Shown here one piece after another: positions 1,908-60,559 of a stretch of 64,000 bases of DNA. Source of the stretch: Escherichia phage AV101; sequence record OQ973471.1, one strand, 5' to 3'. A program made the translations under genes and the position numbers. Numbering within the stretch: the first letter of the stretch is position 1; each line of letters opens with the position of its first letter. The notes under the pieces are model-generated. The model searched no databases, was not told the DNA's origin, and saw only the letters and a program-made list of their open reading frames with translations.

Positions 1908-2369
1908 CTACTCCGCCAGGGTGATCACAACCATATTTAAGACTGTGTCGATAGCTCGGCCTGTTTCCTCTTCATGGAGGGTTTCGGCGCGGAGGTGCAC
2001 GTCGGTGATGAAATTGTCGATGTGCATTGAAGTCAGATACGGGCGGTGTTGACTGACCGGGCGGTTGACCAGAACATAATTGCGCAATGTGTTGAAGTCC
2101 TGATGAGAGCACCCCGTTGTATCGATACGAAGGAAGCGTTCGTTGTGGCTTGTCTTCAACTCAGTCACCTTGCCGAGGTAGGCCAGAGGTCCATTGCGAC
2201 CGATACGGAACATGACATCAACAACAGACTTGAAGATTTCGCGTTCAATCAGTGCGGTGGGTGACCAGCAGATCTCTTCTTTGTCGTCGGCGTACAGGGT
2301 GTCGATCACCAGAGGAAGTTGAATGTAACCGAAGTTGTGCAGTGGGTTGGTGAGTACTTTGTTTGTCAT
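1908..2369 (-). CDS. Hypothetical protein (153 aa, start at internal ATG after conserved leader)
   Basis: Conserved AGGAACTATATC-ATG translation initiation region places start at 2369; preceded by terminator-promoter cassette. Confidence 0.45.
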   Translation of the reverse strand: MTNKVLTNPLHNFGYIQLPLVIDTLYADDKEEICWSPTALIEREIFKSVVDVMFRIGRNGPLAYLGKVTELKTSHNERFLRIDTTGCSHQDFNTLRNYVLVNRPVSQHRPYLTSMHIDNFITDVHLRAETLHEEETGRAIDTVLNMVVITLAE

Positions 2370-2467
2370 GATATAGTTCCTGCTTTCAATTTGTGGCGAA
2401 TGCCAATGAATTACTGGGAAGTATAGGGGAGGGCGTTTCAAAAGTAAAGCCCCTCATTGAGGGGCTT
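2370..2467 (-). promoter_or_regulatory. Terminator - early promoter - conserved leader cassette (PeSL-like)
   Basis: Hairpin AAAGCCCCTC-AATG-GAGGGGCTTT, then TTTACT-17nt-TATACT, then TTGAAAGCAGGAACTATATC-ATG. Confidence 0.5.
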
Positions 2468-2474
2468 TGACAGA

Positions 2475-2699
2475 TCAGCGTTTGAGGCTGGCGGCGAGTC
2501 CATTAACGTCGGTCACGGTCTGGTCAGCGAGGACGATTACAGGCATCGACACGCGCGGCTTACCCGTCAACTGCTGAAGTTCTTCCAGCCGGTAATCTTT
2601 GTCCAGCTTGAGGATCTTGTGCTCCAGCCCTTTCATTTTGCACAGATTTTCGGCTGTTACACACTGAGCGCAACCTTGTTTGGAATAGATCGTAATCAT
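2475..2699 (-). CDS. nrdH: Glutaredoxin/thioredoxin-like redoxin (NrdH/NrdC-like)
   Basis: 74 aa, CxxC active-site motif KQGCAQCV, directly downstream of nrdB. Confidence 0.7.
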   Translation of the reverse strand: MITIYSKQGCAQCVTAENLCKMKGLEHKILKLDKDYRLEELQQLTGKPRVSMPVIVLADQTVTDVNGLAASLKR

Positions 2700-2708
2700 T
2701 TCTCACCT

Positions 2709-3812
2709 TTAAGCGAATTTGAGGCCATCGGATACCGAACCAGTCAGTACACCCATTAGATAATCAGGAGCTTCCGCTTCCTGCAACGCGTACTGCATTG
2801 CCTTATTATCTAGCCAGTCATTAATCCATGGGACTGGGTTCTCCTTGCGAGGTTCACCGGGATATGGGTGCCCGATAGCGCCCATCCGGTGGGTTGCCAG
2901 CCAGTCTACCATCTGATGAAGGATCTTGGCGTTCAGCCCCAGGATGGAACCGTCTTTGAATAGGTAGTTCGCCCACTCCTTCTCTTGATGAACCACGTCC
3001 AGGAACATCTGGGTCATCTCACCACGCAGTTCCTCACGGATGATTGCAAAGTCGGGGTCCATACCAGGCAGGCGGTTTAGCAGCGTCTGGGTCAGGATCA
3101 GGTGATCCTGCTCATCACGGGCGATCTGTCGAATGATTTTGGCATTGCCTTCCATTTTCTTCTGGAACTGTGTGAATGCCCAAGAGCATGCAAAGGACAC
3201 GTAGAAGCGGATGCCTTCCAGTGTGTTGGCAGCAAACAGAGCACGCCAGAATGCGCGTTTGGCATTCATCAGATCTTCTCGGGTGAAGATGCGTCCGGCC
3301 ATACGCATGCCACTGTACTGTACCATGTCATCGTAGTACACACTGATCTGGTGAGCGCAGTCCACGATCTCTGCAACATCCAGTACGTGGTCAAACACGA
3401 TACCTGGATCGTTCACAGTGTTGCGCAAAATGTGGGTGTACGATAAAGAGTGAATGGCTTCTTGGCGCGTCCATTCAAGGACAGCAAACTGCATTTCAGG
3501 GGTAGACGCCCATGGACCAAACGCCTCGAACGGAGCCGCACCCTGGATAGAGTCCAGCATGGTCTGGCGCTTCAGGTTGCTGAAGTAGACATGTTTCTCT
3601 GCTTCGTTCAGAGTAGCGAAGTCTGCCTTGTCCTTGGTGATGTCCACCTCTTCAGGACGCCAGAACTGGCTGAGACCTTTCTCATACCACTTCTGTACGA
3701 ATGGCCAGGCCACGACATCGTAACGCTGGATGCTCACTGGGTCACCGAAGAACGGTAGACCAGTGTTGTCCGAGCTTGGGTCGAATACGGAGAATTGTTT
3801 CTGTTCGCTCAT
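2709..3812 (-). CDS. nrdB: Ribonucleotide reductase small (beta) subunit
   Basis: 367 aa, ferritin-like RNR R2 pattern, adjacent to nrdA. Confidence 0.9.
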   Translation of the reverse strand: MSEQKQFSVFDPSSDNTGLPFFGDPVSIQRYDVVAWPFVQKWYEKGLSQFWRPEEVDITKDKADFATLNEAEKHVYFSNLKRQTMLDSIQGAAPFEAFGPWASTPEMQFAVLEWTRQEAIHSLSYTHILRNTVNDPGIVFDHVLDVAEIVDCAHQISVYYDDMVQYSGMRMAGRIFTREDLMNAKRAFWRALFAANTLEGIRFYVSFACSWAFTQFQKKMEGNAKIIRQIARDEQDHLILTQTLLNRLPGMDPDFAIIREELRGEMTQMFLDVVHQEKEWANYLFKDGSILGLNAKILHQMVDWLATHRMGAIGHPYPGEPRKENPVPWINDWLDNKAMQYALQEAEAPDYLMGVLTGSVSDGLKFA

Positions 3813-3882
3813 GTTTCTTTCCTGATTAATAAGGGGTGATCTCTCACCCCTGATGATATAACGGTAGTAGGTTTAGACCAAT

Positions 3883-6165
3883 TTATACAACACAGCTGTC
3901 GCACTGAGTTTCCTCAGCCTGCTTCAGCTCTTCGTCTTCCTTGGCGTCCTTGTTTGTGTTGTAATATAGAGTCTTGCCACCCCACATATAGAACGACAGG
4001 ATATCCTGCATCATCTTGGCGCGAGGGATCTTGCTGTCAGGGTACTTCTCTGGGTCATACCACGTGTTGGTACTAATGGACTGGTCAACCCAGCGCTGGA
4101 TGACAGCAGCGGTCTTCAGGTACTCAATACAGTCCAGATCCCACTTGAGGTCATACATCGGTCCAAGGGTCTCAACGTCCGGGACGACCTGCTTATAAGT
4201 GCCGTCCTTGCTACCCTTGATGCTCACCAAGCCCTTCGGTGGCTCAATGCCGTTCGTTGCGTTGAGGACCTGTGAGGAGCTTTCGGTAGGGGCTACTGCC
4301 AGCAGGGTGGCGTTGCGGATACCATAGGTCTTCAGATTATCCTTCAACTCATCCCAATCCAGCCCATATGCCATCCCTTCCGGCTTCTTGCCATTTGGTA
4401 GGATATCAAGTGGAAGCGGCTGAAGGTCGGCGGTGACCTGCCCATTATTGTGGATGGTTCCGCGTTTACACGCCCCGAACTTCATAGCCAGACGGTTGGA
4501 TGCCTTGACCAGATAGAAGTGCAGGTGTGCCATCCACGCATCCAACATTTCAAGACCAGCTGGTGAGCCATAGCCCGTGAAGTTCTTGGCCAAGAAGTGA
4601 GCCACGTTCACGATACCAACACCCAGAGGACGATAGTCTTCAACAGCTTTACGAGCCTGAATCGCTGGATAGTCCTGATATTCCAACAGCATGTCCAGCG
4701 CAGACACCAACACGAACGCCACGTCTTCCATTTCGGTCGGGTCTTCGAATGCTGTCAGGTTGAAGGAAGCCAGGGTGCACAGAGCCACGCGCCCGTTTTC
4801 ATCGTTGTACTGCTCAAACTCACGGGTCGGCAGGGCGATTTCTAAACAAAGATTTGAAGAATAAATCGTGTCTAGGTTGAACGGGCTGTATTCATTCATG
4901 TGATCGACAAATGCGATGTAGATGCGGCCTGTGTCTGAACGCTGGTCTAACAGCATCTGGAACACCTCTTCTGCCTGCAACTTTTTAGCACGAACCAAAC
5001 CAGCATCAGCGGCCTTGATCATGTTCTCATACAGAGTACGGAACTTGTCAACGTCAGCGAAGTATGCTTCATACATTTCGCGGTTGTCTTTCGGGTCGAA
5101 CAGATACAGAGGCTGCTTGGCAACAAGGCGCTCAAACATCACGCGGTTGATCTGAATGCCATAGTCGATACGGCGTTCGCGGTTTTCTTCAGTACCACGG
5201 TTGTTCTTCAGAACAACGACGTCATCGAACTGGTAATGCCACAGAGGGATGTACGCTGTTGCTGCACCACCACGAATGCCGCCCTGAGAGCACGATTTGA
5301 GTGCCCCAGTGAGATACTTGATGAACGGGATCAGGCCTGTGTGAACCATCTCTCCGCCGCGAATAGGACTACCAATCCCACGGATTGCCCCGACGTCGAA
5401 GCCGATACCCGCACGTTTGGACACATAGTCAACGATGGTCTTGGCTGTTGCGTTGATAGAGTTCAGGGTGTCACCAGTTTTGATCAGAACACAAGAGCTG
5501 AACTGGCGGGTTGGTGTACGAACACCAGCCATGATAGGCGTTGGAAGACTGAACTTGCCTGTGCTGGCGTATTCATAGAACTTCTTGACCATATCCAGGC
5601 GGCTTTCTTTGTCCCAGTTGGAGAACAACGCCATGGCGATTGCCATGTACATGACCTGAGGAGTTTCGTAGAAGATCTTGCTATCCTTCTTGGAACGGTC
5701 ACGCAGCAGATACTTCTCTGTCAACTGGCCCATGGCCGCCCAGGTGAAGTTCTTGTCACGTTTGTGGTTGATGACATCGTTCAGCTCGTTGAACTCTTCA
5801 GTCGTGTAAAGGTCGAGGAACTCACGATCATACACGCGTTGCTTGATGTTCTTGACGAAGATATCCAGCAGGTGAGGTGGCTTGTACTGGCCATAGACAG
5901 CCTTGCGCAGATCATATGACTTCAGGCGAGCAGCCACATACTGGTAATTGGGTTTCTCTACGGAGATCAGTGAAGCCGCAGCCTGGATGAGGATATCCTG
6001 AATGCGATCTGTTCTCATGTTGTCGGTGAACTGAATCTTCGATGCAGCGATCACCTCTGACATTGATACGCCAACCAGTCCGTCACATGCGCGGTCTACG
6101 ACTTCGTGTGGTTTCTCAATATCAAAGGGGACAGAAGATCCGTCCCGCTTAATGACGTTAATCAT
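3883..6165 (-). CDS. nrdA: Ribonucleotide reductase large (alpha) subunit, class Ia with N-terminal ATP-cone
   Basis: 760 aa; N-terminal ATP-cone MINVIKRDGSSVPFDIEK, catalytic core motifs (NLCLEI, CTLAS). Confidence 0.9.
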   Translation of the reverse strand: MINVIKRDGSSVPFDIEKPHEVVDRACDGLVGVSMSEVIAASKIQFTDNMRTDRIQDILIQAAASLISVEKPNYQYVAARLKSYDLRKAVYGQYKPPHLLDIFVKNIKQRVYDREFLDLYTTEEFNELNDVINHKRDKNFTWAAMGQLTEKYLLRDRSKKDSKIFYETPQVMYMAIAMALFSNWDKESRLDMVKKFYEYASTGKFSLPTPIMAGVRTPTRQFSSCVLIKTGDTLNSINATAKTIVDYVSKRAGIGFDVGAIRGIGSPIRGGEMVHTGLIPFIKYLTGALKSCSQGGIRGGAATAYIPLWHYQFDDVVVLKNNRGTEENRERRIDYGIQINRVMFERLVAKQPLYLFDPKDNREMYEAYFADVDKFRTLYENMIKAADAGLVRAKKLQAEEVFQMLLDQRSDTGRIYIAFVDHMNEYSPFNLDTIYSSNLCLEIALPTREFEQYNDENGRVALCTLASFNLTAFEDPTEMEDVAFVLVSALDMLLEYQDYPAIQARKAVEDYRPLGVGIVNVAHFLAKNFTGYGSPAGLEMLDAWMAHLHFYLVKASNRLAMKFGACKRGTIHNNGQVTADLQPLPLDILPNGKKPEGMAYGLDWDELKDNLKTYGIRNATLLAVAPTESSSQVLNATNGIEPPKGLVSIKGSKDGTYKQVVPDVETLGPMYDLKWDLDCIEYLKTAAVIQRWVDQSISTNTWYDPEKYPDSKIPRAKMMQDILSFYMWGGKTLYYNTNKDAKEDEELKQAEETQCDSCVV

Positions 6166-6250
6166 AGCGATCCTCGGTTTGTGTTATAAGCAGGTTTTAT
6201 TATACGCCGCCCTCGTAGATTGAAGGCGGCGGGGAGTGTTGGTGAGTTAC

Positions 6251-7093
6251 TTAAATGTCGTACAGATCGTTGACTTCCAGCATCAGGCGGGTGAAGTCGC
6301 CGCGCCCGTTGCGGTCAGACTTGTCGAACTCGATGACACTGAACGGCTGAACCCATTCAGGGTACTCATCACCGACGCCAACACCATCGATCTTCAGGGT
6401 TCCGGCCTCCAGCTTGGCGTTGAAGTCGCGGAAGGAACTGACGTACTTTTCAAGGGCGCTGTCGCGCAGGCGCTTGTTGGACTGTTTGATGTCACCGTTG
6501 ACAAAGATGTAAGTCGAGTCGGATGCGCGGGTCAGTAGGTTCTTCAGCTGCTCCATATCACATTCCTGCGCTTCTTCAATGATCAGGAAGGTGTCGTCGA
6601 AGGTCATCCCCTTGATGGTCTCCAGATCCTGGATCTCAATGATCCGCTTCTCCCACAGATAGTTGAAGAAACCGTCGCTACCTGTGTCAGTCTTCAGCAC
6701 CTTCTTCAGCGTCTGAATCAGGGGCATCAGATATGGCATCAGCTTTTCGTATGTGTCGCCAGGGCGGAAGCCTGCAGTCTGGCCTGTTGGCAGCGGAGAG
6801 CGCGTGATGACGATCTTGCTGACCACTTTATCGATCAGGAGCTTGGCGGCGGCTGAGGCACCACAGTACGATTTACCTGTGCCTGCCGGACCGATTGCGA
6901 TGGTGAGGTTTTCTTCAAGAGCAGATTGATACGCGAGGTTCTGATTTTCTGAGAGGCCATTGAACGGAGCGATTCTGAAGTCACCTTTAGAGAACTTCAT
7001 CCAGTCATCTTCTTTCTGGATTGTCTCTTTCTTACGTGCTGACTTGGTCTTGCCCGCTGGCTTCTTACTTACAACTTTGGTGGCAGATTGCAT
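6251..7093 (-). CDS. phoH: PhoH-like ATPase
   Basis: 280 aa, Walker A GPAGTGKSY, PhoH family layout. Confidence 0.85.
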   Translation of the reverse strand: MQSATKVVSKKPAGKTKSARKKETIQKEDDWMKFSKGDFRIAPFNGLSENQNLAYQSALEENLTIAIGPAGTGKSYCGASAAAKLLIDKVVSKIVITRSPLPTGQTAGFRPGDTYEKLMPYLMPLIQTLKKVLKTDTGSDGFFNYLWEKRIIEIQDLETIKGMTFDDTFLIIEEAQECDMEQLKNLLTRASDSTYIFVNGDIKQSNKRLRDSALEKYVSSFRDFNAKLEAGTLKIDGVGVGDEYPEWVQPFSVIEFDKSDRNGRGDFTRLMLEVNDLYDI

Positions 7094-11069: not shown

Positions 11070-11423
11070 TTACGACAGCTGCTTCAGTTTGTAGATCGTC
11101 TGATAGCACAGTGTCTTGATTTCATCAAGCGTGTTCTGAAGGTGGGAGTCACACTGCTTGTAGATGCCATCGACGTCTATCACCACACTGTTGACATAGG
11201 CAATTGGGTCTGGGTTGTAGAGCTTGATGTTCTCGAATGATGGAACATACTGACCACCCGCACCGATGTATGCTTCGGTAAACGTGTCCAGCAAGTCCTC
11301 TAGATCCCCGTAGAACTCCCCGAGTGCCTTGTGCTTGGCATAGGATGTTGTAACGAAGTGCAAGGCATGAGAGTGGGCTATAGCAAGCAGTCCACGGTTG
11401 ATGAAAATACTCGCATTGACCAT
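11070..11423 (-). CDS. Hypothetical protein
   Basis: 117 aa ORF with GAGGA RBS; upstream terminator hairpin. Confidence 0.4.
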   Translation of the reverse strand: MVNASIFINRGLLAIAHSHALHFVTTSYAKHKALGEFYGDLEDLLDTFTEAYIGAGGQYVPSFENIKLYNPDPIAYVNSVVIDVDGIYKQCDSHLQNTLDEIKTLCYQTIYKLKQLS

Positions 11424-11516
11424 GATGTTGTCCTCAGAAAAAGAAATCCCCCTGTATTTAGGGGGATCCAGTTACAGACCAAGTTCTTTCGTCGTGGCGT
11501 CGTCTAGTGCAACCTC

Positions 11517-12095
11517 CTAGACAGGCTTAACACCGAGGAACTTGGCAATGTCAGCAGCCAGGTTTTTACCCTTGCTGATGTCGTGTTCTTTACCGCCGAC
11601 AGTAACGATAACATACGGGTCATCTTCACCACCGAAGTTCACGGTGATCGCCTTGCCGATGCCAGGGATGCCAGGGATGCCAGAGTATTCGAACTCAGTA
11701 CGACCACTCTTGCGAGACTTGCCAGCACCCAGTGCTTTACCGATCATCTTGTCCATGTTCGCCAGTTCCTGAGCATAGGATTCGGTCACCTGGCCTTTGT
11801 CGGCAGACTTGCCAAAGAAGAATTCGAAGCCGTCATGGACAGCAACGACTTCCTGACCTTGGGAAATACCGTGAGTCTGGTCTGGGGTCAGCTTCACCTT
11901 GATGGTGTTGCCGTTGGTTAACTCCAGGTTGTAGACATCCGCCTGATTGTCAGGAGTGATCTGGGTCACGGTAGCGCCGGAACACCACTGGGTGCCGTCA
12001 GCTTGCTTGGTGATGGATACGGTCTTACCCTGGACACCAGCATGTGTCTGAGGTTTAGCGGCTTGTTCTTTAAAGTATTGAAGGAACGGTTTCAT
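11517..12095 (-). CDS. Hypothetical late protein (possible virion component) with GIPGIPGIG repeat
   Basis: 192 aa; T4-type late promoter TATAAATA 25-32 nt upstream of the ATG. Confidence 0.45.
   Translation of the reverse strand: MKPFLQYFKEQAAKPQTHAGVQGKTVSITKQADGTQWCSGATVTQITPDNQADVYNLELTNGNTIKVKLTPDQTHGISQGQEVVAVHDGFEFFFGKSADKGQVTESYAQELANMDKMIGKALGAGKSRKSGRTEFEYSGIPGIPGIGKAITVNFGGEDDPYVIVTVGGKEHDISKGKNLAADIAKFLGVKPV
11658..11683 (-). repeat. Short in-frame tandem repeat (3 x GATGCCAGG) encoding GIPGIPGI
   Basis: Direct 9-bp repeats inside CDS 11517-12095. Confidence 0.55.
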
Positions 12096-12119
12096 CTTGA
12101 ATCTCCTCGGGATTTCAGT

Positions 12120-12127
12120 TATTTATA
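12120..12127 (-). promoter_or_regulatory. T4-type late promoter TATAAATA (minus strand)
   Basis: Exact TATAAATA on minus strand 25 nt upstream of ATG 12095, directly after a terminator hairpin. Confidence 0.5.
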
Positions 12128-12144
12128 AGCCCCCGAAGGGGCTT
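12127..12144 (-). terminator. Hairpin terminator after the 906-aa gene, abutting a late promoter
   Basis: AAGCCCC-TTCG-GGGGCTT perfect stem. Confidence 0.5.
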
Positions 12145-12151
12145 TAGATGA

Positions 12152-14872
12152 TCAGATTTTAATCTGCATGTTGCCGCCCAGGGACTGCTCATACTCACTG
12201 TATGCGCTCTCCCCGTTGCTTGCAGCCCATTCGTCCGACTGCTGAGCACGAGCCAGAGTCATCAGGTTTGGTTCAGTCGGGTTGTATCCCTTGGACTTCG
12301 CATCCTGATACACGGTCTGCAGGTACTGGTTGGCACGGTCGATCTGCCCTTTGAACTCGCGGAAAGCCCCTTCGGTTGTGTTGCGGCGGAAGGTGATATC
12401 CCAATCGACGTTCAGGGTTTGCCCATCACGGCTTGCATAGATCTGCCAATCCAGGTCGCGACCTTTTGGAGCATTGTCGCGGATGGATCCGGCGTATGTC
12501 GCAAGGTCAACGCCAGTCTTCTTCGCAGTACTCGACTCTTTCTCCAGTCTCTCGGTTTCTTTGGACAGGATACCCAACATAAATTCATTAGTGCGGCGAT
12601 CCGCCATGTCGTACCCGCGCCAAAGGACTGAACCGTTGTCGTCAACAGAAATGTCGTCCAAGAATACTTGTTTCGGATTATGCGACGTGCTTTTCAGAGT
12701 TTGCATATTCCGAGATATCATTTCCATTTTAGAAGAAATTTCATCGATCACGGCCTGAACAATATCTTTCTTCAAAGTAAGTTCATATGTCTTCGGATTG
12801 TTCAGGGTACGACCTTTATTGGATACCATAGGCGTGATCGCCACTTTGCCTTTGTCGTAGTAATAGGTCACATTCGTGGTCAATACAGCACCATCATACT
12901 TCCCAGTTTTCGGGAAATTGACGCCAGACCAAGTGATGGACATACCGTTGACAGTCTCACCAAACACCATGGCGTTGCGTGGCATCTTCAGGGTTCCAGA
13001 GTTGACCAGATCAGCGCCTTGGGCATTCAGGTCGATAGAACCATAGATGGCCCCGGTAATACGATCTTTCAGCATCAGGGTCTTGTCGCCCTTCTCTGGG
13101 ATGATTTCCAGCGGGTGCTTGCCACGCGGAGGCTCTTTGATGAGTTCCAGCAGAGCAGTGTTCCCAGGCTTCACACGATTCAGGACAGCGTCGGACACTG
13201 TCAGAGTCCAGTTTGCGGTTTCCACATAACCCCAGCCCCGAGAACGGCGAATGGCTTTGATAGGATATGGAGCGCTTGTTGGCACTGCGCTAATTTCCCA
13301 TTTGCCAGTGTACTGGGTCTTGGCAACCTCAAAGATGGACGCAATTACCGCATTGGCGACGTCACGGGCGCTACCTTTGGCCACGTTCTCCTCTTCAGCA
13401 ATTTCGCTGAAAACTGAGTATTGAACGAAACCAGCGAGGACGTTTGTGAAGTTGACAACGATAACCAACCCGCCTGCCGTCGTGTAACGACCAGCGCCCA
13501 CGCGACGGATGTTTTCACCAGGAAGAATAGAAGTGTCCAGCCCAACGTTGGTATCAATGATACCCAGAACACGAGCGATGAAACCGCTGTCACGTAATTG
13601 ATCAACACTGGTTGCACTCTCGGTCGAATCCGATGCGGATTTAGACACTTTGTTCAACTTGATAGAGACAAGGGTTTCCCCGTTGACACCGATGATATCC
13701 CATTCAGTACCCTGCTCGTTCGAGGTGCGGGCAATCTTGCGCTTTGAATTGATGGCACCTTCGTAACGCCCGTTCTTGACCACAACAGAGGCAGTAGCAG
13801 CATCAGTAGCACTTGCTGCATTTGAAAAGTCTGGGTCAGAAATACTGATGTCGACGTCACCGTTTTGAGAACGCATGCGAACACCGTTTTTGAATCGTTC
13901 CACGTTTACTTCTCGAGCACCAAGTCGTTTGGCATCAATAACAGCAGTTCCAGAACCGATAATGTTGGCTGGGTTATTTCTGTCTGAACTGTTTTGAGAA
14001 CCTTTCCAAAATTTTGTGGACGCCGTGGTGAAATCATTCAGGATACTGATAGGGACTTGCGGTAATTTCAACTGACGAGCAATGAAATCAGCACTTTGCC
14101 CACGCACAGGTTTCTCATTCATGTATGCGCCAACATACACGCCCGGCTCATTGTAGTGGGGAGCGATATTTGCCGTGTTCATGCGGCCTCTCTCCTTACC
14201 AGCCCATAACAACATGGGCTGATCCCCGTTTGAAGTTAATTTCCATCCGTTGGAATTATCAACAGAAGATGACACACCCACATCCGGAGTATTGTTCTGA
14301 ACCGGAACGTCACCGACCTTGTCTGGATCATCCCAGGTGATACCCTGCATCTTCGGACCGTCGAATACCTGAGCCGGATCTTTACCCTTGCGGACCAGCC
14401 ACACATAACCACGGTCAGGGACAGGCGCGTAGGTCAGGTCCATGACATTCAGTTTCTGTTTCAGGCCGGACTGGCGGATGATCTTAGGAATCAGGGTCAT
14501 ACCGCGATCCAGCGCTTTCTTAGAGAAGTTGACAGCAAAGCCATCGATGGTCTTACCCAGAGGAGTCGCCATGAATTGTTTGGTCGCTTCGATCATGGAA
14601 GCGATAACGCGCATTGGGTTCTTGAAGCGAGCGATGGCGTCAGGATAGACGGAGCCGCGCTTCTGGCCGATGAAAACCTGACGAACACTCTTACCCAGCC
14701 CCTGAGGGGTATAGAACTGAATACGGTATTCCTTTTCATCTTCGTCGATGAAGGTGAAGAACACATCGCCTGCGTTCTTCTTGCCCATGGTCAGCTCATA
14801 CGGAGCGGAGTTGAACGCTTCGTCCAACTGATCTCTTTCCTGCATGAACTGGAGGAAACTTAGCTTTGACAT
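12152..14872 (-). CDS. Large hypothetical protein (906 aa), function unknown
   Basis: Long ORF; AGGAG RBS before ATG at 14872; no recognisable catalytic motif. Confidence 0.5.
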   Translation of the reverse strand: MSKLSFLQFMQERDQLDEAFNSAPYELTMGKKNAGDVFFTFIDEDEKEYRIQFYTPQGLGKSVRQVFIGQKRGSVYPDAIARFKNPMRVIASMIEATKQFMATPLGKTIDGFAVNFSKKALDRGMTLIPKIIRQSGLKQKLNVMDLTYAPVPDRGYVWLVRKGKDPAQVFDGPKMQGITWDDPDKVGDVPVQNNTPDVGVSSSVDNSNGWKLTSNGDQPMLLWAGKERGRMNTANIAPHYNEPGVYVGAYMNEKPVRGQSADFIARQLKLPQVPISILNDFTTASTKFWKGSQNSSDRNNPANIIGSGTAVIDAKRLGAREVNVERFKNGVRMRSQNGDVDISISDPDFSNAASATDAATASVVVKNGRYEGAINSKRKIARTSNEQGTEWDIIGVNGETLVSIKLNKVSKSASDSTESATSVDQLRDSGFIARVLGIIDTNVGLDTSILPGENIRRVGAGRYTTAGGLVIVVNFTNVLAGFVQYSVFSEIAEEENVAKGSARDVANAVIASIFEVAKTQYTGKWEISAVPTSAPYPIKAIRRSRGWGYVETANWTLTVSDAVLNRVKPGNTALLELIKEPPRGKHPLEIIPEKGDKTLMLKDRITGAIYGSIDLNAQGADLVNSGTLKMPRNAMVFGETVNGMSITWSGVNFPKTGKYDGAVLTTNVTYYYDKGKVAITPMVSNKGRTLNNPKTYELTLKKDIVQAVIDEISSKMEMISRNMQTLKSTSHNPKQVFLDDISVDDNGSVLWRGYDMADRRTNEFMLGILSKETERLEKESSTAKKTGVDLATYAGSIRDNAPKGRDLDWQIYASRDGQTLNVDWDITFRRNTTEGAFREFKGQIDRANQYLQTVYQDAKSKGYNPTEPNLMTLARAQQSDEWAASNGESAYSEYEQSLGGNMQIKI

Positions 14873-14947
14873 TTTATATCTCCTGATGGAATTATGACGG
14901 TTTCTTCTAATTAGCGAAACCAAAAGAGAGCCGAAGCTCCCCTTATC

Positions 14948-56765: not shown

Positions 56766-57617
56766 TTAGCCGTTGATGCCGAAGCGACGATTATAGTCGG
56801 CCAACTGACGCTTGATAGATTCTTTCAGCTCTTTGTCTGTTTCATCTTCATCGTCATCTTCATCGCCTTCTTTCTTAGGCTTTTTGCCTTCGGCTTTAAC
56901 ATCTTTGTTGTCGTCATCGCCGTCTTTACCGCCGACTTTGTCCTGGAAGTCATCGTCATCGTCATCGCCTTCTTTCTTCACGGACTTACCTTCTACCAGG
57001 TTGCGGAAGGTGTGTACGCGGGAAGCGAATTCGCTTTCGGTGGTGAACTGCACAGCTTCCAGCAGATTGACAACCGTTGCTTTCTTGGTGTCGACCATAC
57101 CTTCACAGATACGGGCGATCACAGAGTCACGCAGAGTCGCATTCGCGGCTTCTTTGATTTGACGGTTTTCGCTTTCGGCAATCGCAGCACGTCGTTCTGC
57201 TTCGGTCAGGCGGGCAGTCAGCGCAGCGATCTGGCCGTTTTCGTCGGTGGCAAAGTTGATACCAGCTTCTTTCAGAACACCAGTCAGGCCAGTCAGCAGA
57301 TTTTCAGCCGCTTCACGTTTGATCTGAGCATCGATTGCAGGAGCGTTCTTGTTAGCCCACTCTTCTACAACAGCATTCAGGAAGCCATCGACTTTCGTCG
57401 CGATTTCCATCAAGTGAGACTCTTTCAGCTGAGCAATCTCAGCCTGATGAGCTTCAACCAGACGCAGGCGCTCAATGTTGGCAGCGTTTTCGGTTTCTTG
57501 AATAGCGGTCAGGCGAGCGGCTTCTACTTTAGATTCCAGCAGACCAGACACTTTATCCAGGAAGTCGGTGCTGAGGCCGTTAACGCCCTCAAACAGTTTT
57601 TGCAATTCAGGTTTCAT
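56766..57617 (-). CDS. gp22: Prohead core scaffold protein (T4 gp22-like)
   Basis: 283 aa helical, acidic C-terminal tail; between gp21 and gp23. Confidence 0.75.
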   Translation of the reverse strand: MKPELQKLFEGVNGLSTDFLDKVSGLLESKVEAARLTAIQETENAANIERLRLVEAHQAEIAQLKESHLMEIATKVDGFLNAVVEEWANKNAPAIDAQIKREAAENLLTGLTGVLKEAGINFATDENGQIAALTARLTEAERRAAIAESENRQIKEAANATLRDSVIARICEGMVDTKKATVVNLLEAVQFTTESEFASRVHTFRNLVEGKSVKKEGDDDDDDFQDKVGGKDGDDDNKDVKAEGKKPKKEGDEDDDEDETDKELKESIKRQLADYNRRFGING

Positions 57618-57662: not shown

Positions 57663-58331
57663 TCAGCCCAGATGTTTCAATGCGATATCGAGGCGGCGCA
57701 GGAAGTCGTCTTCTAACTGAATATTGGTTTTCACCAATGAATCGACCACATGCCCCTTAATGTCCTTAGGAACCCAAATTCCTGAAGATTCATCAAGCTG
57801 CCATTCCACAGATTCGCTCACAGCCTTTACATAACAAACTTGTCCAGAAGGACGGTCGACTGCATCAACAGCAGTGAGCATAAAGCCGGGTTGAACGTCA
57901 TCATAGCCGTTCACTGACTTGGTCTCACCAAGGCCACGTGTAGACACGGCCAGGTTGAAGTCTGCTTCAGCCAGAGCACGAATGATCTGACCTTTCGGTG
58001 TATTCAGGATCCGCGCTCGACCGATAGCGTTGGTGCCTTCCCAGCGCAAAGATTCGGTTTTGAGTGCAGCGTGTTCGATATCGGGGAAAGGATAATCCGG
58101 ATGCTTGAGTTCACCGATTGCACGACGATCCTGGATATACTCTTTGTCGTATGCTTCGACAGCAGGGATACCCACCTTTTGGAGATCGTAGTTGCGACCA
58201 TTACGGTTCACCTGGTTACACATCACGAATGGACCTTCGATGTACATGGCTTTGCCGCCAGTAGCCGTGGCCGCTTCACCAATCTGAAGGTCTTTCCCTA
58301 TCGCAGTGATCTCACGCAACAGTTTCATCAT
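57663..58331 (-). CDS. gp21: Prohead core protease (T4 gp21-like)
   Basis: MYIEGPFVM, GELKHP, IGRARI, VSTRGLG match T4 gp21 blocks. Confidence 0.85.
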   Translation of the reverse strand: MMKLLREITAIGKDLQIGEAATATGGKAMYIEGPFVMCNQVNRNGRNYDLQKVGIPAVEAYDKEYIQDRRAIGELKHPDYPFPDIEHAALKTESLRWEGTNAIGRARILNTPKGQIIRALAEADFNLAVSTRGLGETKSVNGYDDVQPGFMLTAVDAVDRPSGQVCYVKAVSESVEWQLDESSGIWVPKDIKGHVVDSLVKTNIQLEDDFLRRLDIALKHLG

Positions 58332-58338
58332 TCGCTCC

Positions 58339-58644
58339 TTAACTCAGTCCCATCATACGACGGAACTTCATTGCTTTTTTCTTACGACGCTCGATTTTGC
58401 GCTGGTATCCCATACCCATGCGTTTCTTGGCTCGGATCGCCTTGCGGTTGCCCAGCTTGCGAGTACGGCGCTCACTGGCGACCATCACCTCACAACGGGA
58501 ACCATCCGCAGACAGTTTGAAACCAGGAGCACACTGCAGACGGCGACGGCGTTTGCCTTTTGCGTTCACCTTGTCAATGACTTTCTGCTCATCCATGCGG
58601 GAAGCCAGGAAATCAGCGAACGTTGCAACTTCTTCGATTTCCAT
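58339..58644 (-). CDS. gp68: Prohead core protein (gp68-like by position), highly basic
   Basis: 101 aa Arg/Lys-rich; located between gp67-like and gp21. Confidence 0.5.
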   Translation of the reverse strand: MEIEEVATFADFLASRMDEQKVIDKVNAKGKRRRRLQCAPGFKLSADGSRCEVMVASERRTRKLGNRKAIRAKKRMGMGYQRKIERRKKKAMKFRRMMGLS

Positions 58645-58864: not shown

Positions 58865-60559
58865 TTATTCTTCACCACCAGGAGGGTTAGTCGCTGGGAT
58901 GACGTTAGGTCTGAATTTCAGTGGACTGACTTCCCCGCTGCCGAAGCCGCCGGACTCATCTGCCTGCACTTCAGGGTATTTGCCTTCTTTCTTCTCTTTC
59001 TCGATCTTCTCTTGCTGGTCTTTGATGTCTTCATCGGACATACGCAGCAAATTGCGTTGAGCAAAATCGATAGAGAAGAGAGTGCCGATATATGGTTCGA
59101 TCTGACCGAGAGCCGCCATACGCTGTGACAAGATTTCGTTCTCTTGTTGTTCACGGATGAAGCTGTCAGAAGTGAATTCGAACTTGACGAACGGCTTGAT
59201 CTTCTCATTCCAGTCAGCCTGATCTGTAATGCCTTTCAATATCAGCTGACGGCGCAGAAGTTCCAGGAAGATACCAGAAGAATAACGACGGCGCAGGCTC
59301 GCACAGAACTTGTTGAAGCGCAATTCTTCCTGTGTGATTTCAGCAAGATTGGAACCACCGATGTTGATGGAACCTTCCTCTTGCAAGCGGCTCTTAGGGA
59401 TCATCAGAGCCTCGTAGAGCTTCTCGCGGAAGTACACCACATGATCCATTTGACCCAGTTGATCGCCACCGCCTACGTTGGAGATCTCGGTTGCGTTCTG
59501 CCCTTCGCGACGTGGTAGCCAGTAGTCCTCAGCGATACCCATCAAATGAGTGTTACCAGCCACCTTACCAGTGGTGCGATCATACGCCAGACGGTTCTTG
59601 AATTTGCCCATCATGGCTTGCATGTATTCTTCGGCCGACTTCTTACCCAGCGTACCCACGTCGAGATAGAACGCTCGCTTCTCAGGAGCACGTGTGATCG
59701 CATAGATCACCGTTGCATCTTCAGTTGTAACAAGGTTGTTCAGGGGACGGATAGCTGGGTTCAGCAGGCTTGGTACAACCCCATTCGCCAGAGGCTCTTC
59801 ACCACTGTCCAGATACACTATGCTCTCATCATCAAACACCAGCTCTTGCTGTGACGGTTGGAAGTTCTGAGACGTTCCGGACTGGCCAGTGAATTGGTTG
59901 CGGTTGTAGTTCGGGTTGTAGTAGTATTGAAGTTTTACGTCATTGATGACTTCGATACCGTCGCGCATCGCCTTTTGAACGATGTACACTGGGCGGATAC
60001 AGCGTGAGTCCATCATGATGAGTTTGGCGATACCCGCTTTCTTGTTCTTCGGGTCCACTACAACGTGGAATGCCTGACGGCCTTCAATATACCATTTGCG
60101 GATCTTCTGATACGCCGTGTTGTCAAAGTCAAGGAGATGCATGATCTCTTTGAATGCGTCAGTGATCTTCTCTTTGACTTCGTTTGTGATGCCATCTACC
60201 TTTTCCAGGTTGATGGTTACAGGAGTCTCTTCCTCTTCACAGGTGACGATGTCGTTGACAATGATATCCACAGCCTTACGAATCTCAGGCTGCTGAGCCA
60301 TAGACTGGTACTCTTCGACCAGCTGTTTGACGTTGAGCAACTCATTCTCAACACCAACGAAATTGAATGTGTTCGCGCCGCCCTGGAGGATGATGGAACC
60401 ATCCTGAGAATCGTCCAGCGCAACAACAGTCGCTTTTGAAAGCAACTTCTCTTCTTGGTTCGTGACCATCTTGTCGGTATCAATCGGCGCTTCTACTTTG
60501 CCGCCTCTGCCGAACAAGCCGAAGAACCCATTTCCGAATGCACCATTACCGAATGCCAT
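58865..60559 (-). CDS. gp20: Portal vertex protein (T4 gp20-like)
   Basis: 564 aa; size and position between gp19 and gp67/68/21. Confidence 0.85.
   Translation of the reverse strand: MAFGNGAFGNGFFGLFGRGGKVEAPIDTDKMVTNQEEKLLSKATVVALDDSQDGSIILQGGANTFNFVGVENELLNVKQLVEEYQSMAQQPEIRKAVDIIVNDIVTCEEEETPVTINLEKVDGITNEVKEKITDAFKEIMHLLDFDNTAYQKIRKWYIEGRQAFHVVVDPKNKKAGIAKLIMMDSRCIRPVYIVQKAMRDGIEVINDVKLQYYYNPNYNRNQFTGQSGTSQNFQPSQQELVFDDESIVYLDSGEEPLANGVVPSLLNPAIRPLNNLVTTEDATVIYAITRAPEKRAFYLDVGTLGKKSAEEYMQAMMGKFKNRLAYDRTTGKVAGNTHLMGIAEDYWLPRREGQNATEISNVGGGDQLGQMDHVVYFREKLYEALMIPKSRLQEEGSINIGGSNLAEITQEELRFNKFCASLRRRYSSGIFLELLRRQLILKGITDQADWNEKIKPFVKFEFTSDSFIREQQENEILSQRMAALGQIEPYIGTLFSIDFAQRNLLRMSDEDIKDQQEKIEKEKKEGKYPEVQADESGGFGSGEVSPLKFRPNVIPATNPPGGEE

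Follow-up and report, generated by a model that had tools for sequence, protein, structure and literature searches.

A probable one-unit slippage duplication in the gene for a small late virion protein of the Agtrevirus phage AV101

The locus and its late-expression signals

Escherichia phage AV101 (accession OQ973471) has been described as an Agtrevirus with ESBL E. coli as its host (PMC10791037), and its genome was obtained from a Nextera XT library by MiSeq 2x250 bp sequencing and de novo assembly (PMC10844046). The window analysed here is a stretch of 64,000 nucleotides from that record, and all coordinates are counted from its first nucleotide. The region of interest is 92-94% identical to that of the Agtrevirus phages CECAV_050, fGh-Ecl02, Ag3 and Gloob (Ackermannviridae). 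It holds a minus-strand gene for a 192-aa protein, within which a short tandem repeat is found, and the signals that frame this gene are as follows.

11444-11469, minus strand: hairpin and T-run beyond the end of the CDS, resembling an intrinsic terminator (10-pair stem followed by CTTTTTCTGA in a terminator scan)
11517-12095, minus strand: CDS of 192 aa with an ATG start, product identical to WJJ54063.1 of Escherichia phage AV101
11658-11683, in the minus-strand CDS: perfect 9-bp tandem repeat of 2.9 copies (Tandem Repeats Finder and direct sequence)
12103-12108, minus strand: Shine-Dalgarno sequence GAGGAG, 7 nt upstream of the ATG, kept in relatives
12120-12127, minus strand: T4-type late promoter TATAAATA, 25-32 nt upstream of the ATG (pattern search)
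12128-12143, minus strand: hairpin AGCCCC-TTCG-GGGGCT, rich in G+C, which separates the late promoter from the 906-aa gene upstream
12152-14872, minus strand: adjacent upstream late gene, 906 aa from the ATG at 14872, phrog_3867

An earlier sequence-only reading of this DNA had labelled the product of the repeat-bearing gene a late protein, and this label is borne out by the conserved TATAAATA late promoter together with the presence of orthologues in LIMEstone1 and Sajous1 virions. The late-promoter pattern occurs 2 times in the window, where 0.55 matches are expected. The promoter upstream of the 192-aa gene is conserved across Aglimvirinae: every Agtrevirus and Limestonevirus relative has the identical motif, and in Kuttervirus the motif is degenerate. 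The LIMEstone1 record carries a putative late promoter annotated at the equivalent site. The hairpin at 12128-12143 is conserved in all genera examined, and a terminator is annotated at equivalent sites in the LIMEstone1 record. For the upstream gene, the phrog_3867 match begins at residue 18 of the longer ORF.

The virion evidence comes from the literature on orthologues in LIMEstone1 and Sajous1, and not from AV101 itself. In LIMEstone1, the orthologue of the 192-aa protein, ORF080, is recorded as a structural protein confirmed by mass spectrometry, with 2 peptides and 12% coverage in virions (listed as ORF80; PMC3296691). The LIMEstone1 orthologues of the 906-aa gene, ORF082/081, are likewise confirmed by mass spectrometry, ORF081 with 23 peptides (PMC3296691). 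In CsCl-purified Sajous1 virions, gp215 yielded 32 spectra, and gp214, gp216 and gp217 yielded 196, 20 and 10 spectra, respectively (PMC10892097). Sajous1 gp215 is the 83% identical orthologue of the 192-aa protein, and gp214 is the orthologue of the 906-aa protein.

The 192-aa protein matches phrog_4048 (E=2.6e-117), a family whose PHROG annotation gives no function. A Pfam scan of the protein returned no family above cut-off, a PDB profile search for a homologue of solved structure gave a best match of E=0.09, and a HMMER profile search of 1.84 billion representatives recovered only 12 proteins. Two AlphaFold2 models, made from alignments of 24 and 36 sequences, have the same topology at low confidence (mean pLDDT 58 and 59). 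They predict two domains, a beta-rich N-terminal domain at about residues 24-95 and an alpha/beta C-terminal domain at about residues 106-192, and the C-terminal part is modelled as a helix (105-122), five strands and a second helix (179-187) with a pLDDT of about 70-79. Kinship to giant Ig-repeat adhesins (Big_13, Ig_7, HYR) was considered and rejected; the matches are weak and probably reflect the generic beta-sandwich character of the N-domain.

The 9-bp repeat and its copy number among relatives

Tandem Repeats Finder describes the repeat as period 9, 2.9 copies and 100% matches, with the consensus GATGCCAGG and a score of 52, the top tandem-repeat score within the 64-kb window. The plus strand at 11658-11683 is GATGCCAGG GATGCCAGG GATGCCAG (by direct reading, gatgccagg gatgccagg gatgccag), and the coding strand is CTGGCATCC CTGGCATCC CTGGCATC. 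In frame with the minus-strand ORF at 11517-12095, the repeat is translated as GIPGIPGI at residues 139-146, in the protein context ...EFEYSGIPGIPGIGKAI..., which divides as EFEYS-GIP-GIP-GI-GKAI. The sequence-only reading had proposed an in-frame 9-bp repeat encoding GIPGIPGI in this CDS, and its coordinates, unit, copies, frame and CDS all agree with these data.

At a lag of 9, the perfect self-match extends over 17 bases. Across lags of 4 to 30, none of 200 dinucleotide-preserving shuffles of the window contained a perfect run of 17 nt; the longest run per shuffle averaged 10.4 and peaked at 15. The locus therefore contains at least two perfect head-to-tail copies beyond chance, and the 9-nt unit is a multiple of 3 that leaves the 192-aa ORF intact.

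Homologues were drawn from a tblastn search of 50,697 phage records, 276 of which matched, and from IMG/VR, JGI metagenomes, GTDB genomes and a 15-billion-protein collection. AV101 has three units, and all other full-length homologues examined have two (GIPGIG, 183-189 aa). At most one GIP precedes GIG or GHG in 23 of the 23 other full-length cluster representatives, which are 183-189 aa long and read EYS-GIPG[IH]GK or run shorter there. The homologues align to the AV101 protein on either side of the insertion. The nucleotide comparison gives the same difference: full-length tblastn matches span 561-567 nt compared with 576 nt in AV101 (60 evenly spaced rows sampled), and DNA alignment places a gap of exactly 9 nt relative to AV101 in 11 of 11 relatives. 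A 91-nt query centred on the repeat produced no ungapped full-length match, and all full-coverage matches span 81-82 nt because of the 9-nt gap relative to AV101.

Other alleles were sought in the larger collections. A degenerate three-unit pattern had no matches in IMG/VR, JGI metagenomes or GTDB genomes; within IMG/VR, the degenerate two-unit pattern is present in 17 contigs, and the degenerate one-unit pattern has no matches. None of ten constructed variants (AV101 with one GIP fewer or one more, six relatives with a GIP added and two relatives with a GIP removed) was found in the 15-billion-protein collection. The 192-aa protein itself was found in one genome only, that of AV101, on a single contig of 156.8 kb, with 40 of the 111 members of its 90% cluster read; a gene-position index gave no entry for the exact protein. 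It had been suggested that a repeat of this kind can vary in copy number between isolates. This holds in so far as the comparison across isolates reveals three units in AV101 against two in the other full-length homologues, so that copy number is not invariant; however, the variation amounts to a single private event and is neither recurrent nor hypervariable.

The peptide also invites comparison with known motifs. GIP-GIP-GIG forms three Gly-X-Y triplets, a feature in common with the collagen-like (Gly-X-Y)n proteins of phages, and the exact 26-mer is present in 5 IMG/VR contigs, inside long collagen-like (GXY)n genes that are not homologous to the AV101 gene. The AV101 protein differs in that a triple helix would need far more than three triplets and the flanks are predicted beta-strands. 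Given only three triplets, no Pfam collagen match and these flanking predicted strands, a collagen-like repeat protein was rejected. A helix-hairpin-helix, which IPGIG resembles in its hairpin, was also rejected, as strands 134-138 and 150-155 flank the segment in both low-confidence models and no Pfam HhH family is matched.

Origin and consequence of the third unit

The units carried by the relatives of AV101 provide a rationale for the extra copy. A perfect 17-nt repeat of two units, CTGGCATCC-CTGGCATC, is found in the five closest relatives (fGh-Ecl02, CECAV_050, P46FS4, Gloob and Ag3), and AV101 exceeds these phages by exactly 9 nt, or one identical unit, in a gene that is otherwise 92-96% identical. 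In Kuttervirus, Limestonevirus, Taipeivirus and Miltonvirus, the GIPGI peptide is kept and its two units differ synonymously, for example CCGGTATTCCTGGTATT. Because the units of these distant genera are synonymously different and GIPGI is nonetheless kept, the DNA repeat is a by-product of a conserved peptide motif.

We propose that two identical 9-nt units encoding the conserved GIPGIG were already present in the Agtrevirus lineage, where the perfect 17-nt two-unit repeat would have served as a slippage substrate. In the ancestor of AV101, one unit would have been copied once more via replication slippage or unequal pairing, which would add Gly-Ile-Pro in frame and keep both junctions (EYS-GIP and GIPGIGK). 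We infer slippage as the mechanism from the pattern of two units in the relatives and three in AV101. The locus has much in common with short in-frame slippage duplications: the copies are perfect and head-to-tail, the unit length is divisible by three, the new copy is nucleotide-identical, a precursor shorter by one unit is found in the closest relatives, and the loop is length-tolerant. Copy number also differs among related genomes, and the shorter allele is itself a repeat substrate. AV101 differs from such duplications in having only three units and in that one genome carries the expanded allele.

The structural consequence of the insertion can be approached through the models. In both of them, residues 139-149 form a coil between strands 134-138 and 150-155, with a local pLDDT of about 56-68. 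The extra GIP probably sits in this loop, given the agreement in secondary structure between the low-confidence models and the tolerance of indels at this point, and it would lengthen the coil linking two beta-strands in the C-terminal alpha/beta domain of a small late virion protein. Distant homologues differ in length at the insertion point, with LT--TG (P0047), ---VGA (P0023) and I---NG (P0045). In addition, the proteins of PC3- and YX22-type E. coli phages are 101 aa long and lack the entire C-terminal half, and SFP10-type and Serratia phages have an unrelated sequence in its place. The variable loop length in distant homologues, and the lack of the whole C-terminal domain in some phages, make a tolerated and selectively neutral insertion most likely. 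At the same time, GIPG is nearly invariant in the full-length Ackermannviridae homologues, and G147 and K148 are invariant. The near-invariance of GIPG suggests that the motif may matter, and an insertion beside it therefore need not be neutral. Weighing these observations, we consider with good confidence that the third unit is a recent one-unit slippage duplication that is private to AV101, lies in a length-tolerant loop of a late virion protein and is most likely neutral.

The constraint on the motif is also a point in favour of an adaptive origin. If the GIPGIG loop were a binding or recognition element, an extra GIP could alter the target or partner specificity of the protein in the E. 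coli hosts of AV101. GIPG and GK are almost invariant in full-length homologues, the C-terminal half is replaced in a modular fashion within the family, as for arms-race proteins, and AV101 has an unusual host range, though the latter is attributed to tailspikes (PMC10791037). Adaptive loop expansion is nevertheless unlikely. The insertion occurs once, with no convergence in other lineages, and its three units are nucleotide-identical, which points to a recent event; no trace of a sweep is seen. PC3- and YX22-type phages moreover do without the entire domain, and the loop has no assigned function.

A 9-bp duplication also raises the question of a sequencing or assembly artefact, introduced during library preparation or de novo assembly. 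Tn5 leaves 9-bp duplications at fragment ends. The three-unit allele was seen in a single deposited genome and nowhere else in the collections searched, and the library for that genome was made by Nextera XT tagmentation (PMC10844046). MiSeq 2x250 bp reads, however, span the 26-nt repeat amply, and the assembler has no reason to expand it. The 9-bp overlap left by Tn5 is common to neighbouring fragments and makes no tandem copy inside one read, so the Tn5 artefact was dropped on mechanistic grounds. The extra unit also continues, exactly in step and without a frameshift, a perfect repeat that was already there, as biological slippage predicts. An artefact of either kind is consequently very unlikely.

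Across the genomes compared, the repeat does not behave as a phase-variable or hypervariable locus. Three perfect units would be a better slippage substrate than two, but frequent copy-number change as a source of protein-length diversity in phage populations is scarcely credible, as no 1-, 3- or 4-unit allele was found in any collection searched besides AV101 (a few distant homologues have a different loop sequence), a unit that is a multiple of three gives no on/off switching, and known contingency loci have tracts far longer than three copies of a 9-mer. In contrast to VNTR and contingency loci, which have many alleles and recurrent expansion and contraction, this locus has one variant genome and no sign of recurrent change in either direction.

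For AV101 itself, the third unit is a strain-specific 9-bp marker that sets the phage apart from every other sequenced Ackermannviridae phage, and it could serve for PCR tracking of AV101, a biocontrol candidate. It also shows the GIPGIG loop to tolerate lengthening. On its own, the repeat has little significance.

A T4-like leader and the place of the protein in the virion

The N-terminus of the 192-aa protein carries a short leader, and a putative protease for its removal is encoded elsewhere in the window. The features relevant to this leader are as follows.

11781-11789, minus strand: candidate second (L/I/V)-x-E protease site, VTE, codons 103-105
12066-12095, minus strand: N-terminal leader MKPFLQYFKE, codons 1-10, ending in Glu at a putative prohead-protease cleavage site
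56766-57617: T4_CASP scaffold gene, flanking the S77 protease gene (Pfam E=6e-43)
57663-58331, minus strand: T4-type prohead core serine protease, gp21 homologue (Pfam Peptidase_S77 E=1.9e-29)
58865-60559: Portal_T4 gene, flanking the S77 protease gene (Pfam E=3e-148)

The leader is conserved across the family as the decapeptide M-K-x-F-x-[EQD]-[FYH]-[hydrophobic]-x-E. M1, F4 and E10 are invariant in 30 of 30 homologues, and K2 and A12 are kept in at least 90% and are invariant among the 24 full-length members. The leader is kept in every architecture, including proteins with the N-domain only, with the C-domain only and with alternative C-termini. Its closest known counterpart is the T4 capsid-targeting sequence, MKTYQEFIAE (PMC8442874); T4 internal proteins receive a single cut beside this sequence and then remain in the head (PMC8442874, PMC3012670). 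Leaders in relatives, such as MKTFIEFLNE, MKTFKDFVAE and MKTFQQFLTE, are near the T4 sequence. The AV101 leader, MKPFLQYFKE, is more diverged, having only 3 positions identical to T4 (M1, K2 and E10) and similar hydrophobic residues at 4, 7 and 8, and P3 of its putative cleavage site is Phe rather than Leu or Ile.

Within the window, the leader core stands at the N-terminus of only two ORFs, those of the 192-aa and 906-aa proteins. The N-terminus of the 906-aa protein is MSKLSFLQFMQE, and the core FLQ[FY][FM]xE is common to both; the core motif has 3 occurrences in the 34,794 residues of open frames in the window. A third gene with such a leader, a 79-aa ORF beginning MKGFQDFLLKE or MKGFPDFLKE, is present in relatives and missing from AV101. 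The 192-aa protein has only two [LIVFM]-x-E sites, FKE at 8-10 and VTE at 103-105. E105 is invariant in 30 of 30 sequences and marks the boundary where relatives swap or truncate the C-terminal half, and the N-domain-only proteins end in ...ATE or ...GTE.

These features resemble those of the T4 internal proteins with a capsid-targeting sequence (CTS). Like them, the AV101 protein is small and late, and its orthologues are virion-associated. Its first 10 or so residues form a leader of the type M-K-x-[FY]-x-[EQD]-[FY]-[hydrophobic]-x-E, which ends in Glu as MKTYQEFIAE does. The leader alone is retained when the rest of the protein is swapped, the genes form a variable cassette, and the phage has a T4-type S77 prohead protease, scaffold and portal, with the protease and the scaffolding core encoded in the same window. 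There are also differences. The AV101 protein is not highly basic, has two predicted folded domains with the candidate second site VTE105 between them, and resembles T4 IPI/II/III in sequence at the leader only.

Because the leader is conserved, similar leaders stand on neighbouring proteins, and the S77 protease, scaffold and portal are present, the balance tips slightly, by analogy with T4, towards the 192-aa protein being a packaged internal head protein. If so, the leader MKPFLQYFKE would direct the protein into the prohead core, the S77 prohead protease would remove the leader, and the mature protein would then be packaged with DNA. A search of the Sajous1 supplements for peptide-level leader cleavage found none, and in the searchable literature no paper ties a capsid-targeting sequence or internal head proteins to Ackermannviridae. 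The analogy can be extended to a new internal-protein cassette that comprises the 906-aa and 192-aa proteins and, in relatives, the 79-aa protein. Its members would be prohead-targeted, cut by the S77 protease at E10, with a possible second cut at VTE105, and injected along with the DNA as host-takeover or anti-defence effectors, and the C-terminal swaps and the GIP expansion would be traces of an arms race rather than of neutral drift. A cut at VTE105 would in that case release separate N and C modules. We regard this extension as doubtful.

A different role has been suggested by work on Sajous1, in which gp214-217 are described as a 'ferrojan horse' entry operon. According to this model, the 192-aa protein would be a tail-associated molybdate- or iron-binding part of the operon and not an internal head protein. 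Phyre2 matched gp215 to a BiMOP molybdate-binding domain at 63% confidence and gp217 to a ferritin at 96.7%, and gp214 carries the annotation of a tail completion protein (PMC10892097). Our Pfam search also detects a weak TOBE match at residues 41-86 of the AV101 protein, but this match to PF03459 scores 16.8 bits (E=0.0079), under the gathering cut-off of 22.3. The Phyre2 matches behind the model are of low confidence; that of gp215 covers 23% of the protein at 16% identity. Salmonella lacking TonB or FeoB proved as susceptible to infection as the wild type, which does not support the model (PMC10892097). The model also leaves unexplained the CTS-like leader common to gp214, gp215 and gp216. 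Overall, a tail-associated metal-binding role appears improbable.

The leader is a side-finding of this analysis, and it is worth more than the repeat. A conserved T4-CTS-like leader on abundant virion proteins of unassigned function provides a testable assignment of these proteins as packaged internal proteins. If the leader works as in T4, it would also be a means of loading foreign proteins into the heads of Ackermannviridae phages.

The leader-bearing cassette and its neighbours

An N-terminal leader resembling the capsid-targeting sequence of T4 (CTS, MKTYQEFIAE) is common to a cassette of adjacent late virion genes:

Window 12152-14872, minus strand: 906-aa protein, T4-CTS-like leader MSKLSFLQFMQE
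Window 11517-12095, minus strand: 192-aa protein, T4-CTS-like leader MKPFLQYFKE
Relatives: 79-aa ORF, T4-CTS-like leader MKGFQDFLLKE or MKGFPDFLKE
LIMEstone1 (stretch L007) 2348-4819: matching cassette
Sajous1 (stretch L035) 3642-6898: matching cassette

All three leader-bearing proteins have been found, as orthologues, in virion proteomes, and our literature search returned no paper tying a capsid-targeting sequence to this cassette. A DUF5856 protein encoded directly downstream (window 11070-11423, minus strand) is annotated as a 'starvation-inducible transcriptional regulator', and a published Phyre2 call describes it as ferritin-like (PMC10892097). It lacks the CTS-like leader, and its orthologues are also virion-found (LIMEstone1 ORF078, Sajous1 gp217).

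The length of the large cassette member (phrog_3867) differs greatly from one close relative to another: 795 aa in Sajous1, 906 aa in AV101 and 1024 aa in CECAV_050. Its LIMEstone1 counterpart is split into two ORFs, ORF082 and ORF081, both confirmed by MS. As listed, the AV101 ORF (window 12152-14923, minus strand) begins at an upstream TTG; both the orthologues and the match to the PHROG point to ATG 14872 as the start.

Repeats and a small ORF among the head genes

Tandem repeats also occur in two head genes on the minus strand. In the T4-like scaffolding protein (Pfam T4_CASP, CDS 56766-57617), hexamers at window 56841-56967 (TTCATC x4, GTCATC x3.2) give rise to stretches of acidic D/E residues in the C-terminal portion. 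A 15-nt unit present 1.9 times at window 60528-60556 produces AFGNG-AFGNG at the very N-terminal end of the T4-like portal protein (CDS 58865-60559). A very basic 101-aa ORF with no match in Pfam (window 58339-58644, minus strand) sits between the genes for the portal and the prohead protease, a gene position similar to that of gp67/gp68, the small prohead core proteins of T4.

Modular architecture of the 192-aa protein family

Across the homologous proteins compared (P0034, P0035, P0039, P0041 and P0024-P0026), the family of the 192-aa protein is modular. The 101-aa variants of PC3 (stretch L017, 1501-1806), YX22, RPN242 and A221 end directly after the N-domain, and SFP10-, 241- and GG32-type phages carry unrelated sequence in place of the C-terminal half; in every case, truncated or swapped, the breakpoint is the invariant VTE105. 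The family profile (residues about 22-111) weakly matches Ig-like repeats that stand in tandem in giant adhesins of bacteria (P0048, 2021 aa, Big_13/RTX; P0050, 4004 aa, HYR/Ig_7), which suggests that the N-domain is a small beta-sandwich.

The 240-nt (79-aa) ORF follows the 192-aa gene in Ag3, P46FS4, LIMEstone1, ST-W77 and Sajous1 (positions compared: L007 4580-4819, and 1080-1319 in both L008 and L012, stretches of relatives), and is missing from CECAV_050, fGh-Ecl02 and AV101 (site at window 11424-11516). In three homologues, P0027, P0028 and P0029, its domain is joined to the C-terminus of the 192-aa protein family.
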